Positions 1-14,072 of a DNA stretch of 64,000 nt are shown in pieces. Position 1 is the first letter of the stretch, and the number at the start of each line of letters is the position of its first letter. The position numbers and the translations under genes were made by a program. Origin of the DNA: Terrimicrobiaceae bacterium (GTDB lineage Bacteria > Verrucomicrobiota > Verrucomicrobiia > Chthoniobacterales > JAATET01); NCBI GenBank assembly GCA_028713285.1, contig JAQTOP010000010.1, forward strand, positions 207 to 64,206, in the 5' to 3' direction. The notes beneath the pieces were generated by a model. That model was not told where the DNA came from. It saw only the letters and a program-made list of their open reading frames with translations, and did not search any database.

Positions 1-1972
1 CATCGTAGAGCCGAAAGGCGAACGCGCCGGAGATCCGGGGAGCGCGGGCATCCTGCCCGCCGTTCCCGGCATCCTGCCGGGAACCCTCCTCAAGGCCGCC
101 CCCATCCCCACCGCGCCACCAAATCCAGTCGTAGCTCTCCGCGTCCCCCGCGATCCCGCTGCGCCACGGATTCGACAGCACATAGTGGAACTTCTCCTCG
201 ACATCCGCGTCGGATCGCATGAGCCGATCGTGGTATTCCGCCTCCCACACCTGCGCTCGCGGTGTGCTCTCGATCTCGTTGATTCGATTCGCCGAAAACG
301 ACTTCACCGAATGGAAAATCTCGCTCAGCCCATGGAAGATCGGGTCACCCTCCGCTTCCCCGGATTTAATCATCGGTTGGAGAATCACGTGAACGTGGTC
401 GGGCATCACGCAGAGGGCATAGAGTTCGTAGCGCGAGCCGTCGAAGTAGCGAAACGCGCTGAGCACCGCCTCCCGCGCCGCCGCGCTCAACACCCGGTGA
501 TTCCGCGTGGAAAAAGTCACGTGATAGATTCCGTGCGGGCGCTCGTAGTGAGGAAGGCGGCGCTTCCAGTAGCGAATACCGGGGGCTGGCGGCGGCTGGA
601 AGCCGCCTGTTGCGGGCTGGAAGCCCGCGCTCCCCAACAGAATTGCCGCCTCGCGCTCGAAGAGCTCAATCCCCCGATCCAGCGTCTTGTTGAACGCCTC
701 CTCCTCGCGTTTGAGCGCCTCCTCGACATGCGCCTGCCGTGCGCGGATTTCGGGAAACACATCGCCCATCGTGCGGGCGAGGACGGCTGTGAGTTTGTAG
801 AAAAACGGTTCGTGCAGGCCGAGCGTGCGGCCATAGCGGACGGCGCGACGCAGGATGCGGCGCAGGACGTAGTTGCGGTCGGTGTTGCCGGGCTGAATGC
901 CGTCGGCTATCGCGAAGCTCAATGTGCGGATATGGTCGGCGATTACGCGAAACGCGACGTCGATTTTCTCCTGCTCGCTGTGGCCCGTGCTGCCCGAGGC
1001 CGGGAGCGTGGAGGCGTATTTTTTGCCGCTGAGTTTTTCGATCTCGTCGAAGATCGGGCGGAAGATGTCCGTCTCGTAGTTCGAGATTTTCGCGCCCGCA
1101 AAGTCGGTGAAGCCTTTTGTGCCCTGGAGGATCGAGGCCACGCGTTCAAAGCCCATGCCGGTATCCACGTGCCGCGCGGGCAGCGGGACAAGCTCGATGG
1201 GGAGCGCGGCCATCCTGGCCGTGGAAGCCGGCATCCTGCCGGCTGCGTCCTCGGCGCGAGCAGGATGCTCGCTCGTGCGGGCTGGAAGCCCGCGCTCCCC
1301 GGGCTGCGCGTTGAACTGGATGAAAACGAGATTCCATATCTCGATGCACTCGGCGGTGCCCTTGTTGACGAGCGCGCCCCGCGTGTCGCCCGACGGCGTG
1401 AGATCGACGTGCAACTCGGAGCACGGACCGCACGGACCCGTGTCGCCCATCATCCAGAAATTGTCCTTCTTGTTGCCGTTGACGATGTGGACCGCCGGGT
1501 CGAGTCCGGCGCTGCGGAATTTCCCGGCCCAATGGCTCCACGCCTCCTCGTCACGCTCGGCCGGGTCGCCTTCGTCGGGTTGATAAACCGTGGCGTAGAG
1601 CCGCTGCGGCGGGAACTTCCACCGCTCGACGACCAGCTCCCACGCCCATTCGATGGCCTCCTTTTTGAAATAATCGCCGAAGCTCCAGTTCCCGAGCATC
1701 TCGAAGAACGTGTGGTGGTAGGTGTCGAGGCCGACGTCGTCGAGGTCGTTGTGCTTGCCGCCCGCGCGGATGCACTTCTGCGTGTCCGCCGCGCGGCCCG
1801 GCGTGTAAGGGCACGCGATCTCGCCCAGAAAAATCGGCACAAACTGGTTCATGCCCGCATTCGTAAACAGAAGATTCGGCGAGTCGGGCAGCAGCGAACT
1901 CGACGGCACAATCGTGTGCTGCTTCTCCCGAAAAAACTCGAGGAAGGACGTGCGAATCTCTGCGCTGGTCAT
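1..1972 (-). CDS. alaS: Alanine--tRNA ligase (AlaRS), first ~657 codons. The ORF is open from ATG at 1972 to the window edge at 1, and the 3' part lies outside the window.
   Basis: Manual minus-strand translation from ATG 1972 gives [165 protein letters not shown]. The last residues at the window edge (..[11 protein letters not shown]) match the conserved AlaRS F-x-LYDTYGFP block. There is no stop in this frame anywhere in 1..1972. The ORF is not in the supplied track because it has no stop inside the window. It is interrupted in-frame by the elements at 37..635 and 1199..1300. Confidence 0.9.
37..81. repeat. REP hairpin pair (loop TCC orientation) flanking the RAYT core
   Basis: There are two hairpins with perfect 7-bp GC stems and 3-nt loops: gcgggca-tcc-tgcccgc at 44-60 and cccggca-tcc-tgccggg at 65-81. 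They are preceded by the terminal motif ggggagcgcgggc (37-49). Confidence 0.8.
591..635. repeat. REP hairpin pair (loop GGA, inverted relative to 37-81) flanking the other side of the RAYT core
   Basis: The hairpins are ggcggct-gga-agccgcc at 591-607 and gcgggct-gga-agcccgc at 612-628, followed by the terminal motif ..gcccgcgctcccc ending at 635. The 24-mer gcgggctggaagcccgcgctcccc recurs exactly at 1277-1300. Confidence 0.8.
1199..1300. repeat. 102-nt REP doublet-of-doublets (REPIN/MITE-like) element inserted in-frame in the alaS catalytic-domain region
   Basis: Four hairpins with 6-7 bp stems and 3-nt loops are present: 1207-1221 and 1227-1243 (loop TCC), then 1256-1272 and 1277-1293 (loop GGA). 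The element is bounded by inverted termini, ggggagcgcgg at 1199-1209 and ccgcgctcccc at 1290-1300. It is 102 nt (34 codons) long and is read as [34 protein letters not shown]. It sits between the AlaRS blocks [14 protein letters not shown] and [16 protein letters not shown], where canonical AlaRS has only a short linker. Confidence 0.75.
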
Positions 1973-2072
1973 GGCGAAACTGGAAAGAGTGACGCCGGGG
2001 CAGGCGGAGTCAAGTCCGCCGCCTCGCAATCCTGCGTTGCCACGGCCCTGTCGATTTGTTGCGGTGTGCGGA

Positions 2073-3326
2073 ATGCGACCCCTTCCCGGCTTTCGTGATT
2101 TTTACCCCGAGGATTGCGCGCGCCGCGGCTACCTGCTCGACGGCTGGCGCGCGGTCGCATGCCGCCATGGCTTCGTCGAAGTGGACGGACCCGTGCTCGA
2201 ATCGATGGACCTCTACGCGAAGAAGAACGAAAGCGGAGCCGAGATTCTCGGCCAGCTCTATCAATTCACCGACCGCGGCGAACGCGAGGTCGCGCTGCGT
2301 CCGGAAATGACGCCCACCCTCGCCCGCATGGTCATCGCGAAGGAACGCGACTACCGCAAGCCGCTCAAGTGGTTCAGCATCGCGAATTTTTTTCGCTACG
2401 AGCGCCAGCAAAAGGGCCGCCTGCGCGAGTTCATCCAATTCAATGCCGACCTCCTCGGCGACGCCTCGACGGCCGCGGACGCTGAGTTGATCAGCCTCGC
2501 CATTGGGGTGCTTCGGGAATTCGGATTCACGCGGGACGATTTTGTCATTCGGTTGAGCGACCGGCGGGCGTGGATGGATTTTCTCGCGGCGCGCGGCTGC
2601 GATGAGGGCGCCGCACGGGCTGTGCTCGCGATCATCGACAAGCTGGACCGCGAGCCCGAGGCATCGCTGGATGCGAAACTCGCGCCGCACGGCCTCACCG
2701 TCGCGGAGCTGCGGGCGTTCATCGCGGCGGCCAGTCCGGAGCATTTTGCGCCACTGCTCGACCAGTTCGAGGCGCGCGGTCTGCGCGAATTCGTCGAGGT
2801 CGATCTGTCGATCGTGCGCGGGCTGGCTTACTACACCGGGCTCGTCTTCGAGGCGTTCGACCGCGGCCAGTCGATGCGGGCGCTGGCCGGCGGAGGCCGC
2901 TACGACAATCTGCTCGCCGACCTGAGCGACGGCTCGGTGAACCTCCCCGCCATCGGCTTCGGCCTGGGCGACGTGGTGCTGGGCAATCTCATCGAAGAGA
3001 CGCCACGCGCCCGCGAGAAAATGGAACGCGCGCTTGGGGCCGCGCCGGCTGCGGAGATTTACGTCGTCATCGCCGGGGAGGCGCGCCGCCGCGAAGCGCT
3101 CGGCCTCGTCCAGTCGCTGCGCGACGCCGGCTGGCGCACGGATTTTCCGCTCGATGCGGCGAAGGTCGGCAGGCAATTCCAGACGGCCGACCAGCTCGGC
3201 GCGCGGTTTGCCGTCGTGGTCGGCAACGAATGGCCCGCGGTGAAAATCAAGACGCTCGCGACGCGCGCCGAGGATTCCGTCGCGCACGGCGCGCTTGCCG
3301 AGTGGCTGAAAACCGCCCACGTTTGA
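2073..3326 (+). CDS. hisS: Histidine--tRNA ligase
   Basis: In the frame of track ORF 1851..3326, ATG at 2073 gives the conserved N-terminus [14 protein letters not shown]. Other class II HisRS blocks are [35 protein letters not shown] and AGGGRYDNL. Confidence 0.93.
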
Positions 3327-3335
3327 CGGTTCGTT

Positions 3336-5105
3336 ATGAAGTATCGTTCCTGCTCCTGCGGCGCGCTGCGCCCGTCCGACGCCGGCTCGGAGGCCACCCT
3401 CTGCGGCTGGGTGGATTCGCGCCGCGACCACGGCGGCGTCATTTTCATCGACCTGCGCGACCGCGAGGGCATCACGCAAATCGTCTTCCGTCCCGAGGAG
3501 CACCCCGCGGTCGCCGGGCAATCGCACGGTCTGCGCAGCGAGGACGTCATCACCGTCACCGGCGTCGTCGCCCCGCGCCTCGCGGGCACCGAAAACACGA
3601 AGCTCGCGACGGGCGGCGTCGAAGTCGTCGCCACGGCGCTGACCGTCCTGAACAAGGCGGAGGTGCTGCCATTCCCGATCGACTCGAAGGTGTCCAACGA
3701 GGACCTTCGCCTGGAATACCGCTACCTCGATCTGCGCCGTCCCGAGATGGCCGCGAACCTCCGCCTGCGCCACCGTGTGATCAAGACGATCCGCGACGTG
3801 ATGGATGGCGAGGGATTTCTGGAGATCGAAACACCCATTTTGTCGAAGAGCACGCCCGAGGGCGCGCGCGACTTTCTCGTGCCCTCCCGGCTCACGCCCG
3901 GCGCATTCTACGCGCTGCCGCAGGCTCCCCAGCAATACAAGCAGCTCCTCATGGTCGCCGGCGTGGAGAAGTATTTCCAGATCGCCCGCTGCTTCCGCGA
4001 CGAGGATTTGCGCGCCGACCGCCAGCCCGAGTTCACGCAGCTCGACGTCGAGGCGTCGTTCACGAGCGAGGAGGAAATTTTTGGGCTCATCGAGCGCCTG
4101 CTTGCGACCGTGTTCAAAGTGGCGCGCGGCGTCGAGCTCGCGCCGCCCTTCCCGCGCCTGACGTGGCTCGCCGCAATGAACCGCTACGGCAGCGACAAGC
4201 CCGACACGCGGTTCGGAGTGGAGATCAACGACCTCGCCGACGTTTTCGCGACGACGGAGTTCAAGGTCTTTCGCGGCGCGCTTGACACGGGCGGCGTCGT
4301 GAAGGCGATCAACGCGAAGGGATTCGCCGGCATCACGACAGGGCAGATCAACGAACTCACGCAGGTCGCGCAGCAATACGGCGCGAAGGGCCTCGCCTTC
4401 ATCAAGGTCGAGGGCGGCGAGTGGAAGTCGCCCATCGTGAAATTCTTCACCGACGACGAGAAGGCCGCACTCACCGAGCGCCTCGGCATCGAGGAAGGCG
4501 ACCTGATCCTCTTCGGCGGGGACAAATGGGATGTCGTCTGCGAAGTGCTCGGCCGCGTGCGCCTGCGCGTGGCGGAGATGCAGCGGCTCGTCGCGGACCC
4601 GCGGCAATTGAACTTCCTCTGGGTCACCGAATTCCCGCTGCTCGCCTGGAGCGCCGAGGAGAACAAATGGAACGCGGTGCATCATCCGTTCACGCGGCCG
4701 CTGGCGACGGACCTGGAGAAGCTCGAGTCCGGCGACCTCCACCATGTGCGCGCAGTGGCCTACGATGTCGTGCTCAACGGCGTGGAAGTCGGCGGCGGCA
4801 GCCTGCGAATCCACGAGGCCGACCTGCAGGCGAAAATGTTTTCGATTCTGGGTGTCACCGAAGAGCAACAGAAAACGCTCTTCGGCCATCTATTGAAGGC
4901 CTTCCGCTTCGGCGCGCCACCGCACGGAGGGATCGCGCTGGGCCTGGACCGTCTCGTGATGCTCATTGCCGGCGCAGACTCGATCCGCGATGTGATTGCG
5001 TTTCCGAAAAACAACCGCGGGCAGGAGCTTCTGACCAGTTCGCCGTCCACGGTCGATCCACGCCAGCTTCGCGAGCTGTCGATGCAATCGACGAAGAAGC
5101 CCTGA
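3336..5105 (+). CDS. aspS: Aspartate--tRNA ligase (possibly non-discriminating)
   Basis: The 589-aa ORF has an OB-fold N-terminus (LCGWVDSRRDHGGVIFIDLRDREG). It also carries FYALPQAPQQYKQLLM, QIARCFRDEDLRADRQPEFTQLD, GGGSLRIH and PPHGGIALGLDRLVM. Confidence 0.95.
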   Translation: MKYRSCSCGALRPSDAGSEATLCGWVDSRRDHGGVIFIDLRDREGITQIVFRPEEHPAVAGQSHGLRSEDVITVTGVVAPRLAGTENTKLATGGVEVVATALTVLNKAEVLPFPIDSKVSNEDLRLEYRYLDLRRPEMAANLRLRHRVIKTIRDVMDGEGFLEIETPILSKSTPEGARDFLVPSRLTPGAFYALPQAPQQYKQLLMVAGVEKYFQIARCFRDEDLRADRQPEFTQLDVEASFTSEEEIFGLIERLLATVFKVARGVELAPPFPRLTWLAAMNRYGSDKPDTRFGVEINDLADVFATTEFKVFRGALDTGGVVKAINAKGFAGITTGQINELTQVAQQYGAKGLAFIKVEGGEWKSPIVKFFTDDEKAALTERLGIEEGDLILFGGDKWDVVCEVLGRVRLRVAEMQRLVADPRQLNFLWVTEFPLLAWSAEENKWNAVHHPFTRPLATDLEKLESGDLHHVRAVAYDVVLNGVEVGGGSLRIHEADLQAKMFSILGVTEEQQKTLFGHLLKAFRFGAPPHGGIALGLDRLVMLIAGADSIRDVIAFPKNNRGQELLTSSPSTVDPRQLRELSMQSTKKP

Positions 5106-9628: not shown

Positions 9629-10630
9629 ATGCATAAACGCTGGCTACTCGTCCTCCTGCAAACGTCCGTCACGGTCGGCTTGCTGGCGTTCTTCTTCCAC
9701 GACGCGGAGTTTCGCCGCGACGCGATCGAGGCGCTGCGACGCGCGCATCCCGGCTGGCTCGCGCTCGGCGTGGCCATCGCGGGCGCTGAAAATCTGGTGG
9801 GTGTTTTGCGCTGGCGCATTTTCCTGCGAATGCTGGGCATCACGGTGGCGTTCTGGAAAAGCGTGCAGGTCTGCCTTGTCGCGCTGTTTTGCAACACGTT
9901 TCTGCTCGGAGGAGCGGGCGGCGATCTTGTGCGCGCGGCGTATCTCATCCGCCAGGGAGCGGGCAAGACGGATTCGCTATTGTCGGTGATCATGGACCGC
10001 GTGAGCGGCCTTGCCGCGCTCATTTGCTACACCGTTGTGCTGTGCGCCTGGAATTTCGACTGGCTGATGCGCAGCCCCAAAGCGGCGCTGCTCGTCGAAT
10101 TTGTCATCGCCTACCAGGCCTTCTGCGCGCTGCTGATCCTTGGTTCGCTATTCGTCTCGGTGCGCGGACTCACGGAGCGGCTGCCGCGCTGGGCGCCATT
10201 CCCCGAGTTCGTTCGCAAATTGGGCGTCGGCTACGCGAAGCTCATTTACCATTGGACCGGCACGCTGCGGGCGATGGCATTCTCGTTTGTGATGGTCCTC
10301 GGTTACTTCGCCGTTTTTTTCTGCACGGCGCGGGCCTTCGGGTTGAACATTTCCTTTTTTCACCTGGCGACACTCATGCCAATCGTCGATGTCATCAGCG
10401 CCCTGCCGATCAGCATTGGCGGGATGGGGGTGCGCGAGCAGGTGTTCGTGTGGCTGCTGGGCGGCCTCGCAGCGGTGCCGGCGGCGATGGCGGTATCGAT
10501 TTCTCTCGTCGGTTATCTCGTGAACACCTCGTGGGGCCTGGTCGGCGCCGCAATCCTGCCGCTCTTCAAGGGCATCGTCCGCGACGCACGCAGCGCGGCC
10601 CGCCCACCCGGACAGTCGCGCTGGAAATGA
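9629..10630 (+). CDS. Flippase-like polytopic membrane protein (UPF0104 / lysyl-PG synthase TM-region family)
   Basis: The ATG at 9629 (MHKRWLLVLLQTSVTVGLLAFFF) starts a protein with multiple predicted TM helices. Blocks LLGGAGGDLVRAAYL and LPISIGGMGVREQVF are typical of the family. The gene is divergent from the 9510 operon. Confidence 0.8.
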   Translation: MHKRWLLVLLQTSVTVGLLAFFFHDAEFRRDAIEALRRAHPGWLALGVAIAGAENLVGVLRWRIFLRMLGITVAFWKSVQVCLVALFCNTFLLGGAGGDLVRAAYLIRQGAGKTDSLLSVIMDRVSGLAALICYTVVLCAWNFDWLMRSPKAALLVEFVIAYQAFCALLILGSLFVSVRGLTERLPRWAPFPEFVRKLGVGYAKLIYHWTGTLRAMAFSFVMVLGYFAVFFCTARAFGLNISFFHLATLMPIVDVISALPISIGGMGVREQVFVWLLGGLAAVPAAMAVSISLVGYLVNTSWGLVGAAILPLFKGIVRDARSAARPPGQSRWK

Positions 10631-11091
10631 ACGCGAAAACGGCCGCCCGTCGCGACATCCAGCAACTCGAAAACCTGCAAATCCGCCCCGTGTTTCGCGT
10701 AGCGCACGCTGAATCGTCCCGTGCGCACGTCGCTGTCGCCATCGGGCGCAGCCGATGCGCCTTCATAAGCCTCGGCGAGACACAACCATCCGGCGAGGGG
10801 CGCGGGAGCGGTGTTCCAGGCGCCGCGCCAGCCGTTTCGCGCGAGCGGACCGACGGCGGTCCATTCGCCGCCCGCACGAGTGAGGGCGAGGAGCGGCGCA
10901 TCCTTCGCGACGAGCAGGCGCAAAGCGCCATTTGCCCCGGTCTGGAAATCCATGTCGGCGACGAGCAGGTTCGCGCCGTTGCGCCAGGTCACGATTGCGT
11001 GCCGCGACGCAGTCGGTTGGAAGGCAGCTCGCGGAGCGATCGCGCAACCCGCGAGAAGGAAAGCGGCTGCGGCGACCCGGCACGCGGTCAC
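10513..11091 (-). CDS. Hypothetical lipoprotein
   Basis: A GTG at 11091, 7 nt after the gnd stop, gives (M)TACRVAAAAFLLAGC with lipobox LLAGC. The coding-like frame continues to the stop at 10513. The 3' end overlaps the convergent gene by 118 nt, which lowers confidence. Confidence 0.5.
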   Translation of the reverse strand: MTACRVAAAAFLLAGCAIAPRAAFQPTASRHAIVTWRNGANLLVADMDFQTGANGALRLLVAKDAPLLALTRAGGEWTAVGPLARNGWRGAWNTAPAPLAGWLCLAEAYEGASAAPDGDSDVRTGRFSVRYAKHGADLQVFELLDVATGGRFRVHFQRDCPGGRAALRASRTMPLKSGRIAAPTRPHEVFTR

Positions 11092-11098
11092 CCGGCGG

Positions 11099-12109
11099 CT
11101 ATGCCTTTTTCTCGAGATGCCCGCCGAATTGGTAGCGCATCGCGGAGCAGACTTTCTCGGCCATCGTGTGCTCCTTGCGGGAGCGGAAGCGGGCGTAAAG
11201 CGCGGCGGTGAGCACCTCGCAATCGACGGACTCGTCGATGGCGGCCATGATCGTCCAGCGGCCTTCGCCCGAGTCGGAAACCCGGCCGGAGAAATTCGAG
11301 AGGTTCGGATCTTCCGCAAAGGCGGCTGCGGCGAGGTCGAGCAGCCAGGAGGAGACCACGCTGCCGCGACGCCAGACCTCGGTGACGTCGGCGAGGTTCA
11401 AATCGTAAACCAGGTCGTGGTTCGTGAGCGGCGCCGTCTCGGCATCGGAGACCTGCGCCTGCGTGGCAACATTCGCATTTGAGAGAATGTCGAGGCCTTC
11501 GCCGTATGCGGCCATCATGCCGTATTCGATGCCATTGTGGACCATCTTGACGAAGTGGCCCGCGCCGGACGGGCCACAGTGCAGGTAGCCTTCCTCGGCG
11601 GTGCCGCCGAGTTTCTCGCGGCCGGGCGTGCGGGGCACGTCGCCGCGACCGGGCGCAAGGGCCTTGAAAATCGGATCCATCCGTTCGACGGCCGGGGTGT
11701 CGCCGCCGATCATCATGCAATAGCCGCGTTCGAGGCCGTGGGTGCCGCCGCTGGTGCCCACGTCGAGGTAGTGGACGCCCTTGGACTGAAGCGCCGCGGA
11801 ACGGCGGCGATCGTCGCGGAAGTAGGAATTGCCGCCGTCGATGATCGTGTCGCCTACGTCGAGCAGCGCCCCGAGCTGGTTCACGATTTTGTCCGTGATC
11901 GCCGCGGGAATCATGATCCATGCGTTACGCGGTTTCTCGAGTTTCGAGACGAAATCCTCGATCGAGGCGGCGCCCGTCGCACCCTCGGCGGCGAGCTCCT
12001 TGACCGTCTCGGGATTGGTGTCATAGACGACGCAGGTGTGTCCCTGGCGGATAAGCCGGCGGACCATGTTGGCGCCCATTCTCCCGAGACCGATCATTCC
12101 TAATTGCAT
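11099..12109 (-). CDS. gnd: 6-phosphogluconate dehydrogenase, decarboxylating (short Gnd/YqeC type)
   Basis: The ATG at 12109 gives [19 protein letters not shown] (Rossmann GxGxxG). Other blocks are [18 protein letters not shown] and [18 protein letters not shown]. Confidence 0.9.
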
Positions 12110-12188
12110 GGTGTGAGGCAGGGTTGAAGTTTGGCTGAGGTTGTCGCCACTCGCGGGGCCGAACAAGGATAATCGCCCGCTCGCGGAG

Positions 12189-14072
12189 TCATGATCGATA
12201 CATGCGCTCGATTTCCGCCTCGCCGGCGGCACGCGCCCTGCGGCGCTCCCGAACGATCACGACGGCAAGACCCGCCACGGCGACGAGTCCGAGCCAGATC
12301 CACGGAATCCGAAAGACCGCGCTCGGCTTCGTGAAGACGTCAAATGGCGGAGAAGGCTGCGACGGCGCTCCAGCGGCATCGAAACCCACAATGAGGATGG
12401 TTATGCTCTCGCCGGGATGGAGGCCGCCGATGGTGGCCCGCACGTCATCGCGGACGAAACGGGGCTTCACCTGCGGGAGCGGGAGGTATTTGAAAACGGC
12501 CTCGCCATTGGCGGCGAAATCGACCCTGCGGAGGATCACGGCGTAGCGCACGGCGGACGGTGACGTTCTCTTCCATGTGAGATCGAGCTCCGTTTTCGTC
12601 TGACGCGAAACGCCGATTTGCTCGACGGGCGGAATGTCGCTGGCGGGCTGGATTGCGGGAGCCGCCGCGCGGGAGGCGCCGGTCGGGGCGGCATCGGGCG
12701 CGCTGCGAGGATCCTCGATCACCACGGCGCGCACCGGCAGCAAGAGCGGAACATTTCCCGCGTCGAACGAGACGGCGTCATCCAGCCTGCCCGCCGCGGG
12801 GCGCGCAAAGGCAACTTCAATTTCCCGCACGGCCCCGGGCGCCAGCGCTTCGTAGGATGGGTCGGGCTGAAGCAGCACGCCCTCGGGCGCCGTGACCCGC
12901 AGCTCCGCGGGCGTGCCGCCTGCATTATGCAGCGTGACCTTCACGCGCCCAAAATGCCCGGCGACGAGGGAACCGAAATCGATGGCTTTGGGCTGGGCCG
13001 TGATACGCGCCGGTGCGGCCATCACGCGCAGCGGCACCTCGATGCGCACATCGTCGCCGGTGATGGTGATGCGACCGCCCAGCGCGCCGAGAAAGCCCGC
13101 CCGGGTGTGCAGCGCGACCTGGCACTCGGACTTCGCCGCGAGATTCACCTTGTCCTGGATGATGACCTCGGTGGGCGCGGCGATTGTCAGTTCGCGATCC
13201 GTATCCGACACATTGCGGAGCAAAAATCCTCCCGTGCGGACCTCGCCGCGGCCGTCTCCCTCGACCCGCACTTCGCGTGGCACGACCTCGATGGGCGCGT
13301 ATCCGCGTCCGCCAAGGCCGATTTCGACCCCCGGTGCGTGCGAGAACTCCCCCGTGCCGGCGAACTGGCGACTGTCGGTCGGCGTAAACGTGACGGCCAG
13401 CGTCGCGGAGCCGCCGGGACCGAGCGAATAACCGCCATCTCCGGCGGCTATCTTCCACGGCGCGGGCACGGTGAGCCGTCCTTCCAAGCGGCTGCCGCCG
13501 TCATTTCGGATCTCGAAGGTTTTCCGCTCGGACTCTCCCACGGGCACGTCCGGAAACTCCAGCCTTGCCGGCGCGACGAAGACAGGCGGCCGCTCGACGA
13601 CGTTCAGCAGCACCTCCGCCGGCGTGGAGACGCCGCCATACGGCGCGCGCACTGCGTAGCGGAAGCGGTCAGCGCCCGGGCCGGCGGACGCGTCGTGCGT
13701 ATAGGTCACCGTCGCGGTGTTGCGGCTCGTTGGCGTGATTGCGGAGAGCTTCCCCGCGGCGGGCTGGCGGCGAATGATGAATTGGAGCGGGAGTCCCGAG
13801 CGGCTCACGCCCTTGAGTGGAATCTCGACCGACTCACCGACGAACACCTTCGCCGTGGCCGGCTCCGGTTGCGCGGGCGGAACGGAGGGCAGGTCGATAT
13901 CGGCTCGCAGGTTCCATGCGACAAGCAGCCCCGCCGCGGCGCAAGCGCCGGCCAGCCGGTTCAAAATCGAGGAAGGAAATGAACGCAAGGCGGGAATGTC
14001 GTTGAAATGTCGGGTGTCAGCAACTATGCGAATAGTTGACGCCAGACGGACCCGACACAAGAGCGATGCCAT
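12189..14072 (-). CDS. Large secreted/membrane-anchored protein with repeated beta-sandwich (choice-of-anchor-D / PapD-like) modules and a C-terminal TM anchor
   Basis: The 627-aa ORF has repeated F..V.VGES..K.F.I.N.G-type modules. It has a C-terminal hydrophobic helix ([17 protein letters not shown]) followed by RERRRAR. The start is uncertain: ATG 14072 collides with the divergent gene, and an in-frame TTG at 13964 gives [17 protein letters not shown]. Confidence 0.7.

Follow-up and report, generated by a model that had tools for sequence, protein, structure and literature searches.

How does a palindromic repeat of 102 nt come to lie inside the reading frame of an essential gene, and from where was it supplied? 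The question is raised by a 64,000-nt stretch of a Terrimicrobiaceae genome (contig JAQTOP010000010.1; hereafter the window), at the left end of which alaS, the gene of alanyl-tRNA synthetase (AlaRS, alanine--tRNA ligase), occupies positions 1-1972 of the minus strand, with its ATG at 1972, and runs off the window end. The 657 N-terminal alaS codons held by the window contain no stop, and translation reads through two foreign segments in the alaS frame, the 102-nt element at 1199-1300 and a larger unit at 37-635, which encodes a transposase domain of the kind associated with repetitive extragenic palindromes (REPs), the REP-associated tyrosine transposase (RAYT). The 102-nt element is probably a REPIN (REP doublet forming hairpins) of a REP family widespread in Verrucomicrobiota, inserted in frame in alaS, with its cognate RAYT encoded in the same gene.

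The element measures 102 nt from terminus to terminus and is translated in the alaS frame (minus strand) as 34 amino acids. Its terminal inverted repeat (TIR) consists of GGGGAGCGC at 1199-1207 and the partner GCGCTCCCC at 1292-1300, and the longer termini GGGGAGCGCGG at 1199-1209 and CCGCGCTCCCC at 1290-1300 are also exact. Four hairpins are arranged between the ends, namely an outer REP hairpin CGGCCA[TCC]TGGCCG at 1207-1221 (stem 6, loop TCC), an inner REP hairpin AGCCGGCA[TCC]TGCCGGCT at 1226-1244 (stem 8, loop TCC), an inner REP hairpin GCGAGCA[GGA]TGCTCGC at 1256-1272 (stem 7, loop GGA), and an outer REP hairpin at 1277-1293 (stem 7, loop GGA), which together with its terminus makes up the 24-mer GCGGGCTGGAAGCCCGCGCTCCCC at 1277-1300. 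The left and right hairpin pairs are separated by a 13-nt spacer, and the arms at 1199-1239 and 1260-1300, 41 nt each, are 76% complementary, as in an inverted REP doublet. Folded as DNA, the 102 nt reach -42.2 kcal/mol with the termini paired (z-score of -6.1 against shuffles), while the sense RNA reaches -67.6 kcal/mol (z-score of -5.1), in both cases far better than shuffled sequences. The element departs from the extragenic location of REPINs in that it sits in the alaS reading frame.

The same layout is found in the unit at 37-635, with hairpins at 44-60, 62-84, 591-607, and 612-628. The hairpin at 1207-1221 differs from that at 44-60 by a compensated G/C swap, the hairpin of 1256-1272 is the outer right hairpin of the RAYT unit in the orthologous alaS of locus L001, and the 24-mer at 1277-1300 is identical to 612-635. 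When the whole 64 kb was scanned for perfect stems of at least 5 with a TCC or GGA loop, nine hairpins were detected; the eight with stems of 6-10 are all located in alaS, four making up 1199-1300 and four flanking the RAYT domain. The core motif GGCWTCCWGCC occurs seven times in the 64 kb against 0.23 expected (about 30-fold), six of them in alaS. An earlier note on this DNA, made from the letters alone, had described an in-frame element with inverted termini, four GC hairpins (two with loop TCC, then two with loop GGA) in the layout of the 37-635 unit, and a shared 24-mer, and this description agrees with the scan, the repeat comparison, and the folding. The shared REP is also read in different frames, as the note had stated, giving GSAGFQPA in the RAYT-unit copy and GERGLPAR in the 1199-1300 copy. 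The note had further taken the stop-free state as a sign of compatibility with coding. All six frames of the element are indeed open, but so are 67% of random 102-nt windows from the same sequence, and thus the open state is not special and only the length constraint is informative. As for the GTAG tag, the window copies have GGAG within GGGGAGCGC instead, and true GTAG occurs in some other copies, i.e., at the L001 right end (GGGTAGCGC, other strand), in L035, and in a recG unit of L001. A terminator or attenuator role of the hairpins was considered and rejected; a promoter and terminator scan found nothing within 1199-1300, with only weak terminator-like matches elsewhere.

The REP family extends far beyond the window. 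A scan of a genome collection with GGGGAGCGCGGGCWTCCWGCCCGC as query matched at least 119 stretches of other genomes, mostly of Verrucomicrobiota and with several loci per genome; at least seven family loci were present in single metagenome-assembled genomes (MAGs) among the matches listed. The matches listed carry the 24-mer in at least eight phyla (Verrucomicrobiota, Acidobacteriota, Planctomycetota, Lentisphaerae, Kiritimatiellota, Proteobacteria, Chloroflexi, and Binatia), and such exact identity, judged from the matching stretches, implies extreme conservation or horizontal spread of the family. Because the 24-mer is conserved family-wide, being identical in the orthologous alaS genes of L001 and L003 and in many unrelated loci, its identity at two places of the window does not show recent copying and is no evidence of a local origin. 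Many of the matches listed are inverted doublets of 141-158 nt with the order TIR, outer hairpin GCGGGCWTCCWGCCCGC, inner hairpin CCGGCATCCTGCCGG, a spacer of 40-70 nt, and the mirror image; the element at 1199-1300 follows exactly this order with a shorter spacer. The termini GGGGAGCGC/GCGCTCCCC also delimit the REPINs of L013-L118, as well as the RAYT units at 11 alaS loci. About 100 of the 135 matches listed lie outside any long read-through open reading frame (ORF), so that most copies are extragenic, and at least nine loci among the matches listed have the repeat in frame in Pfam-recognised genes. A subfamily of intergenic REPINs (L026, L047, L097, L106, L110, and L118) has a longer terminus, GGAAAA-GGGGAGCGC ... 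GCGCTCCCC-TTTTCC.

The host gene codes for an alanine--tRNA ligase. The orthologue P0004 scored 856 bits against TIGR00344, the alaS equivalog model (cut-off 457), full-length AlaRS orthologues contain PF01411, PF07973, and PF02272, as expected of an alanine--tRNA ligase, and the window AlaRS matched solved AlaRS structures at 1e-112. A search with the protein recovered over 100 orthologous AlaRS sequences, 1100-1150 aa long and 62-70% identical, from Chthoniobacterales, Terrimicrobiaceae, and related Verrucomicrobiota. Every residue invariant across 29 and across 104 of these orthologues is kept in the window protein, which argues that alaS is not decaying.

Comparison with the orthologues indicates that the element was added to this gene. 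The 34-aa segment is found only in the window protein among 29 aligned orthologues and is missing from five of five orthologous DNA loci; a homologous segment in orthologues, which the earlier note had held would point to an old loop, was thus present in none of the 28 others. The distance from IWN to VDTGMG is 189 nt in the window against 90 nt in the five orthologous loci. The size given in the note holds for the element itself, which is complete at 102 nt, and not for the gain, which is 99 nt (33 codons) with one loop codon lost. The canonical loop of 22 residues is present in 112 of the 119 top protein matches. When the protein is aligned with solved structures, the insert takes the place of four residues, 223-226, in human AlaRS (5KNN), within the loop that joins the strand IWNLVFIQ(F/Y)N to motif 3 (VDTGMGFER), a mapping that places it where the note had put it, in the catalytic region. 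Two AlphaFold2 models, built from alignments of 29 and 104 rows, gave a predicted local distance difference test score (pLDDT) below 50 for the insert in both (mean pLDDT 61 and 68), and short strands at 222-224 and 261-263 on either side of it in the second; the insert is therefore modelled as what is probably a disordered loop segment.

The codons adjoining the element also differ from those of the orthologues. By locus comparison, GCG CAG CCC (1301-1309, minus strand) upstream encodes A-Q-P where the canonical sequence is A-N-P, and ATC GAG CTT GTC (1187-1198, minus strand) downstream encodes I-E-L-V in place of canonical D-G-T-F-S. A wider mobile unit including the CAGCC/ATCGAG flanks was rejected, the flanks of 26 other REPINs being without them, and the element was not classed as a miniature inverted-repeat transposable element, as TIRs are present without a target-site duplication. 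In a metagenome scan anchored on a lineage-specific 21-mer adjoining the insertion, 12 matches were obtained, the best of which showed an ungapped nucleotide identity of 74% across the 300 nt that lie upstream of the anchor. The insert was missing from every alaS match among them. A protein search with the 40-aa insert peptide gave no candidate. An intein was rejected both for the insert, which is bounded as G...P followed by I, and for the RAYT unit, bounded as G...P followed by R, neither having splicing residues. Translational bypass, with a jump from the CCC codon preceding the element to the final CCC codon within it, is unlikely because bypass would not require the in-frame, stop-free state that is kept here and in locus L135.

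The second segment of the gene provides the candidate partner. The REP-RAYT-REP unit at 37-635 (minus strand, alaS frame) consists of a TIR and two hairpins at each end of a RAYT (HUH Y1 transposase) domain at 113-580 (minus strand), in which PDHVH and the tyrosine of EKFxYxxxNP are conserved. The domain scored 80.7 bits against NCBIfam NF047646, REP-associated tyrosine transposase (cut-off 80), and covers positions 3-145 of the 146 of the model; H526/H528 of PDHVH and Y597 are invariant in 29 sequences. It lies at one alaS position in all 29 aligned orthologues, the RAYT motif is carried by 107 of 120 matches, and the unit occupies a fixed AlaRS site in more than 100 Verrucomicrobiota orthologues (P0002-P0120). 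The RAYT is presumably made as part of AlaRS, because no conserved start codon precedes the domain among the 29 aligned sequences. It thus has the HUH/Tyr residues, the full-length model match, and the REPs on both sides that characterize RAYTs, and differs from them in not being a free-standing single-copy gene. At the DNA level, the RAYT is flanked by REP doublets bounded by GGGGAGCGC/GCGCTCCCC in 11 alaS loci. Mean identity is 59% for the RAYT and 82% for AlaRS, with pairwise identities only moderately correlated (r = 0.41), so that the RAYT diverges faster. Taken together, the sequence comparisons indicate that the RAYT unit is an ancient, conserved in-frame part of alaS. The two independent insertions into one gene that the earlier note had found striking do not fit this history, in which the RAYT unit, with its invariant catalytic residues, is shared by more than 100 orthologues of 62-70% identity. 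Such proteins bear the label 'alanyl-tRNA synthetase/REP element-mobilizing transposase RayT' at the Joint Genome Institute (JGI).

Other in-frame units were also observed in this and a neighboring gene of related genomes. Beside the orthologous alaS of L001, recG (L001:17725-20514, minus strand) contains an in-frame RAYT domain at aa 411-563 that splits the DEAD domain and is 52% identical to the alaS RAYT; the REPs on either side of it are of another type, and their termini, GGGTAGCGC...GCGCTACCC, contain GTAG. The alaS of L002 (L002:10001-13632, P0002) encodes two RAYT domains, the extra one after 'TLPNANATGD'; it is called as two ORFs (10001-12748 and 12751-13632), for which a stop, a frameshift, or a sequencing error may be responsible. 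REP-encoded peptides (GSAGFQ...GLEARAP) were found in more AlaRS loops, at aa 280-360 of P0098, aa 800-880 of P0036, and aa 790-860 of P0044; these REP-filled loops include that of the extra RAYT of P0002 and another after 'WLHF(L/V)' in the C-terminal half.

The REP hairpins at the ends of the RAYT unit are maintained although they are coding sequence. Their stems vary between lineages yet always pair (100% of cells paired in 19 end sequences), with compensatory changes on both sides in five of the seven pairs. The covariation score of 0.59 compares with 0.17 in shuffles and was reached by none of 500 shuffles, and slid controls pair at 28-41%. This pattern of covariation indicates that the REP hairpins in coding DNA are under structural selection. 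The REP type beside the alaS RAYT changes even between closely related AlaRS, while the TIR-encoded 'GSA' is constant, and the left and right REP ends change together, as seen in the 26 residues before the RAYT domain in P0002-P0120. Such joint change, as far as the aligned residues tell, suggests that the unit has been turned over or replaced while its site stayed the same.

Several observations pair the REPIN with this RAYT. The termini, the 24-mer, and the hairpin layout of the element are those that flank the domain at 113-580, the domain is the only RAYT match in the window, and the earlier note's assignment of the element to the REP family of this RAYT, as a non-autonomous REPIN-like member, is supported by the shared ends and by the occurrence of the family in other genomes. 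In the loci fetched with the 24-mer, a RAYT profile found homologues only inside alaS (L085, L103, L117, and L118), with the exception of one distant free gene in a Blastocatellia genome. The MAGs JAFAXH and CANIWM have an alaS-RAYT plus dispersed REPINs with the same 24-mer. In L135 (P0036), an intact REPIN also lies in the catalytic loop, but its REP type is another one, with hairpins GCGCCCG[CCT]CGGGCG and AGTTTCCCGCG[CCCT]CGCGGGAAACT, and this is the type that flanks the RAYT domain of that same gene. The match of loop REPIN and RAYT in two lineages with two REP types speaks most strongly for the embedded RAYT, or its REP ends acting as a template, as the source.

A mechanism can be proposed on this basis. 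A REPIN, an inverted REP doublet bounded by GGGGAGCGC/GCGCTCCCC, would have inserted at the tip of a beta-hairpin loop leading from an active-site strand to motif 3. It would simply be translated, since all frames lack a stop and the net gain is divisible by three, adding about 34 Gly/Ala/Pro/Arg-rich and probably disordered residues to a surface loop. The enzyme may tolerate the insert, as is the case for other intragenic REPs and for the Rickettsia palindromic elements (RPEs), which are translated as extra surface segments of otherwise functional proteins, and we infer that the insert is translated and harmless. The matching transposase would be the RAYT domain, whose coding sequence follows 560 nt further downstream without a change of frame. 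Made within the AlaRS polypeptide, this HUH/Tyr domain may have placed the REPIN, or may keep it matched, by acting on single-stranded REP hairpins, on which E. coli TnpA-REP is known to act. RPEs are not known to have an associated transposase, whereas the window element has a matching RAYT beside it.

Several points weigh against this proposal. We know of no reconstitution of RAYT-driven REPIN transposition for this family. The hairpin scan found no family copy in the 62 kb of the window outside alaS, which argues against simple local hopping. Neither a target-site duplication nor a common target sequence is evident at 1187-1198/1301-1309 or at other copies, and no close relative was found, the nearest orthologue having about 77% identity. 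The structural placement rests mainly on sequence alignment because the AlphaFold2 models are of low overall quality. The orthologues with an expanded catalytic loop, moreover, share altered flanks and are not each other's nearest relatives, which is not what simple independent transposition predicts.

These expanded loops occur in seven of the 119 orthologues, scattered among them, with gains of 33 and 42 residues (intact REPINs) or of 8 or 9 residues (possible stumps), and all seven have the flanks AQP and x(E/D)(F/L/Y)VPL instead of ANPDGTF(S/T)PLP. The site has thus been expanded recurrently, and the single simple insertion pictured in the earlier note does not cover the data. One ancestral filled allele (AQP-REPIN-xEFVPL) might have spread among Chthoniobacterales and Terrimicrobiales by homing-like recombination with short co-conversion tracts, after which its REPs would have been homogenised to match the REP type of each recipient. 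The canonical loop is found in the nearest relatives of P0023, P0036, and P0064; directly upstream of the insert, the window, L135, and L137 have in common the synonymous codons AAT and GCG, where five canonical loci and L136 have AAC and GCC/GCA; and the loop of L137 keeps a palindromic stump, GCCGGGG...CCCCGGC. However, the comparison is very small, with three loci set against six at two sites that are linked, the altered flanks of L136 come without the synonymous markers, the clustering of the orthologues is a crude unweighted pair group (UPGMA) analysis of 395 columns, and no known mechanism converts REP types at a fixed site. Spread of a filled allele is considered unlikely as the explanation of the window element. 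The shared flanks themselves may reflect either a hot spot with convergent flank change or the spread of one filled allele by recombination.

The remaining alternatives concern how the loop came to be filled in this gene. According to the earlier note, a full RAYT unit lost its core; a second REP-RAYT-REP unit would have inserted in the loop and been deleted in situ down to its four end hairpins. The end structure of the element is exactly that of the 37-635 unit, full RAYT units can occupy other alaS loops, as in P0002/L002 with its two RAYT domains, and P0098 has a REPIN in the loop where P0002 has the extra RAYT. Since related genomes often contain ready-made intergenic REPINs with the same four-hairpin architecture, however, insertion of such a REPIN is at least as likely; in addition, the inner left hairpin GCGAGC...GCTCGC differs from GGCGGC...GCCGCC of the resident unit, and the 13-nt spacer is without a recognisable RAYT coding remnant, so that core deletion appears quite improbable. 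An assembly artefact, or a decaying alaS pseudogene backed up by another alaS, might be suspected because the source is a MAG, the protein cluster has a single member from one contig, and no independent assembly of it was found. Yet the frame is intact over at least 657 codons with the residues invariant in 29 or 104 orthologues kept, it is hard to see why an assembler would create a perfect inverted doublet, in frame, within a unique gene, and an independent assembly, L135, shows the same kind of intact insertion at the same site; a pseudogene was rejected, and the chance of an artefact is very small. That the segment is an old lineage-specific protein loop, REP-like only by chance or through GC-rich composition, could be entertained on account of the expansion in 7 of 119 orthologues and of the high share of stop-free random windows (67%). 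This reading is contradicted by the exact family termini, the four perfect hairpins, the 24-mer identical to REP ends in many genomes, the fold z-score of -6, and the lack of the segment in the nearest orthologues, and it was rejected as hardly tenable. Insertion of a REPIN in frame, with its cognate RAYT in the same gene, remains the preferred explanation.

A broader reading may be ventured, which is regarded as possible and considerably less than probable as a whole. In the Chthoniobacterales and Terrimicrobiales, the RAYT of this whole REPIN family would be a catalytically intact AlaRS domain instead of a free gene, the REPs would have evolved to be readable in six frames, and surface loops of housekeeping proteins (at least four loops of alaS, and loops of recG, valS, uvrA, and others) would serve as an intein-like refuge. 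The REPIN of the catalytic loop would spread between lineages as a filled allele, through gene conversion of a homing-like kind, with the resident RAYT keeping its hairpins matched to the REP type of the host genome.

The in-frame copies in other genes include a REP or REPIN in the ValRS gene at L112:3281-6325 and one in the UvrA gene at L060:4305-8000, where the repeat joins two UvrA-like halves. Seven further in-frame loci, in listing order L042:1-2640, L056:1608-4538, L073:964-1950, L064:3717-6485, L063:746-4270, L088:4264-7998, and L107:866-2473, are of the kinds class II ribonucleotide reductase/NrdJ (two loci), ThyA, MutS2, ATP-dependent DNA ligase, xanthine dehydrogenase, and MmeI-type enzyme. 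In the window itself, a hisS-like ORF (ending at 3326) and aspS (3336-5105) lie on the plus strand (1851-5105), head to head with alaS, and three aminoacyl-tRNA synthetase genes are therefore adjacent.

Considered alone, the 102-nt element is one more translated intragenic palindrome, and it is the setting that matters. An essential aminoacyl-tRNA synthetase has long carried a RAYT among its internal domains, compensatory change preserves the REP hairpins of that RAYT within coding sequence, and at least two lineages, differing in REP type, have matching REPINs in loops of this one gene. The general view of RAYTs is that they are domesticated, single-copy transposases of unknown benefit to the cell, and this system allows it to be asked whether RAYT activity is tied to the host gene, how mobile palindromes evolve tolerance by proteins, and whether a DNA transposon can fill a niche usual for inteins. 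It is also relevant for annotation, as such AlaRS proteins are now labelled 'alanine--tRNA ligase-related'.

Among known systems, inteins and homing endonuclease genes share with the window elements a selfish in-frame niche at conserved sites of essential genes and possibly the co-conversion of flanks. Here, in contrast, splicing motifs are lacking, the nuclease is an HUH Y1 enzyme, and nothing indicates removal at the protein level. The TIRYT/TIRtron elements, which have GGGGWSAS termini and RAYT-like genes and occur in Acidobacteria among others (Di Nocera et al., 2013; PMC3733652), are similar in their inverted termini starting with GGGG, GGGGWSAS being one mismatch from GGGGAGCG. They differ in that classic REP hairpin doublets follow the termini here and the whole unit lies in the frame of a host gene. 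RPEs have been described as palindromic mobile repeats in frame in protein genes (Ogata et al., 2000, as cited in PMC3733652) and are unrelated to the window element in sequence, size, and host phylum.

By definition, REPINs lie outside genes, and a RAYT is a gene of its own (Bertels and Rainey, 2011, PMC3116915; Bertels et al., 2017, PMC5581495). The window system resembles REPIN-RAYT systems in its REP doublet forming a long hairpin, in a single RAYT with the same REPs, in vertical persistence, and in the co-divergence of REP and RAYT, and differs in that the RAYT is an internal AlaRS domain without a conserved start and the REPINs lie in coding loops. The words fusion, fused, tRNA, domain, and Verrucomicrobia are all absent from Bertels et al. 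(2017). Intragenic GTAG/CGTC REPs, as monomers and dimers, are in-frame parts of ORFs to which they add 20-30 or more residues; DNA-repair genes (uvrA, DNA ligase) often contain them, and tRNA synthetase genes of other bacteria do so too. The verrucomicrobium Opitutus terrae, with in-frame REPs in uvrA and ligase, has the most intragenic GTAG repeats, and these REPs have been compared with RPEs (Di Nocera et al., 2013; PMC3733652). The main text of that study, supplementary tables aside, contains neither an alanyl-tRNA synthetase nor a RAYT inside a host gene, and the literature searches returned no account of a RAYT or transposase residing within alaS, nor of REPINs in that gene that match its REPs. 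In-frame REPs are thus already known, and an alaS-embedded RAYT with REP-matched REPINs is apparently undescribed in the literature searched. The window family agrees with the REPs of Di Nocera et al. (2013) in having in-frame copies and in the kinds of host genes; unlike those, it carries its tag as GGAG inside GGGGAGCGC, with GTAG only in some copies, and its REPIN and matching RAYT share one reading frame of one essential gene.

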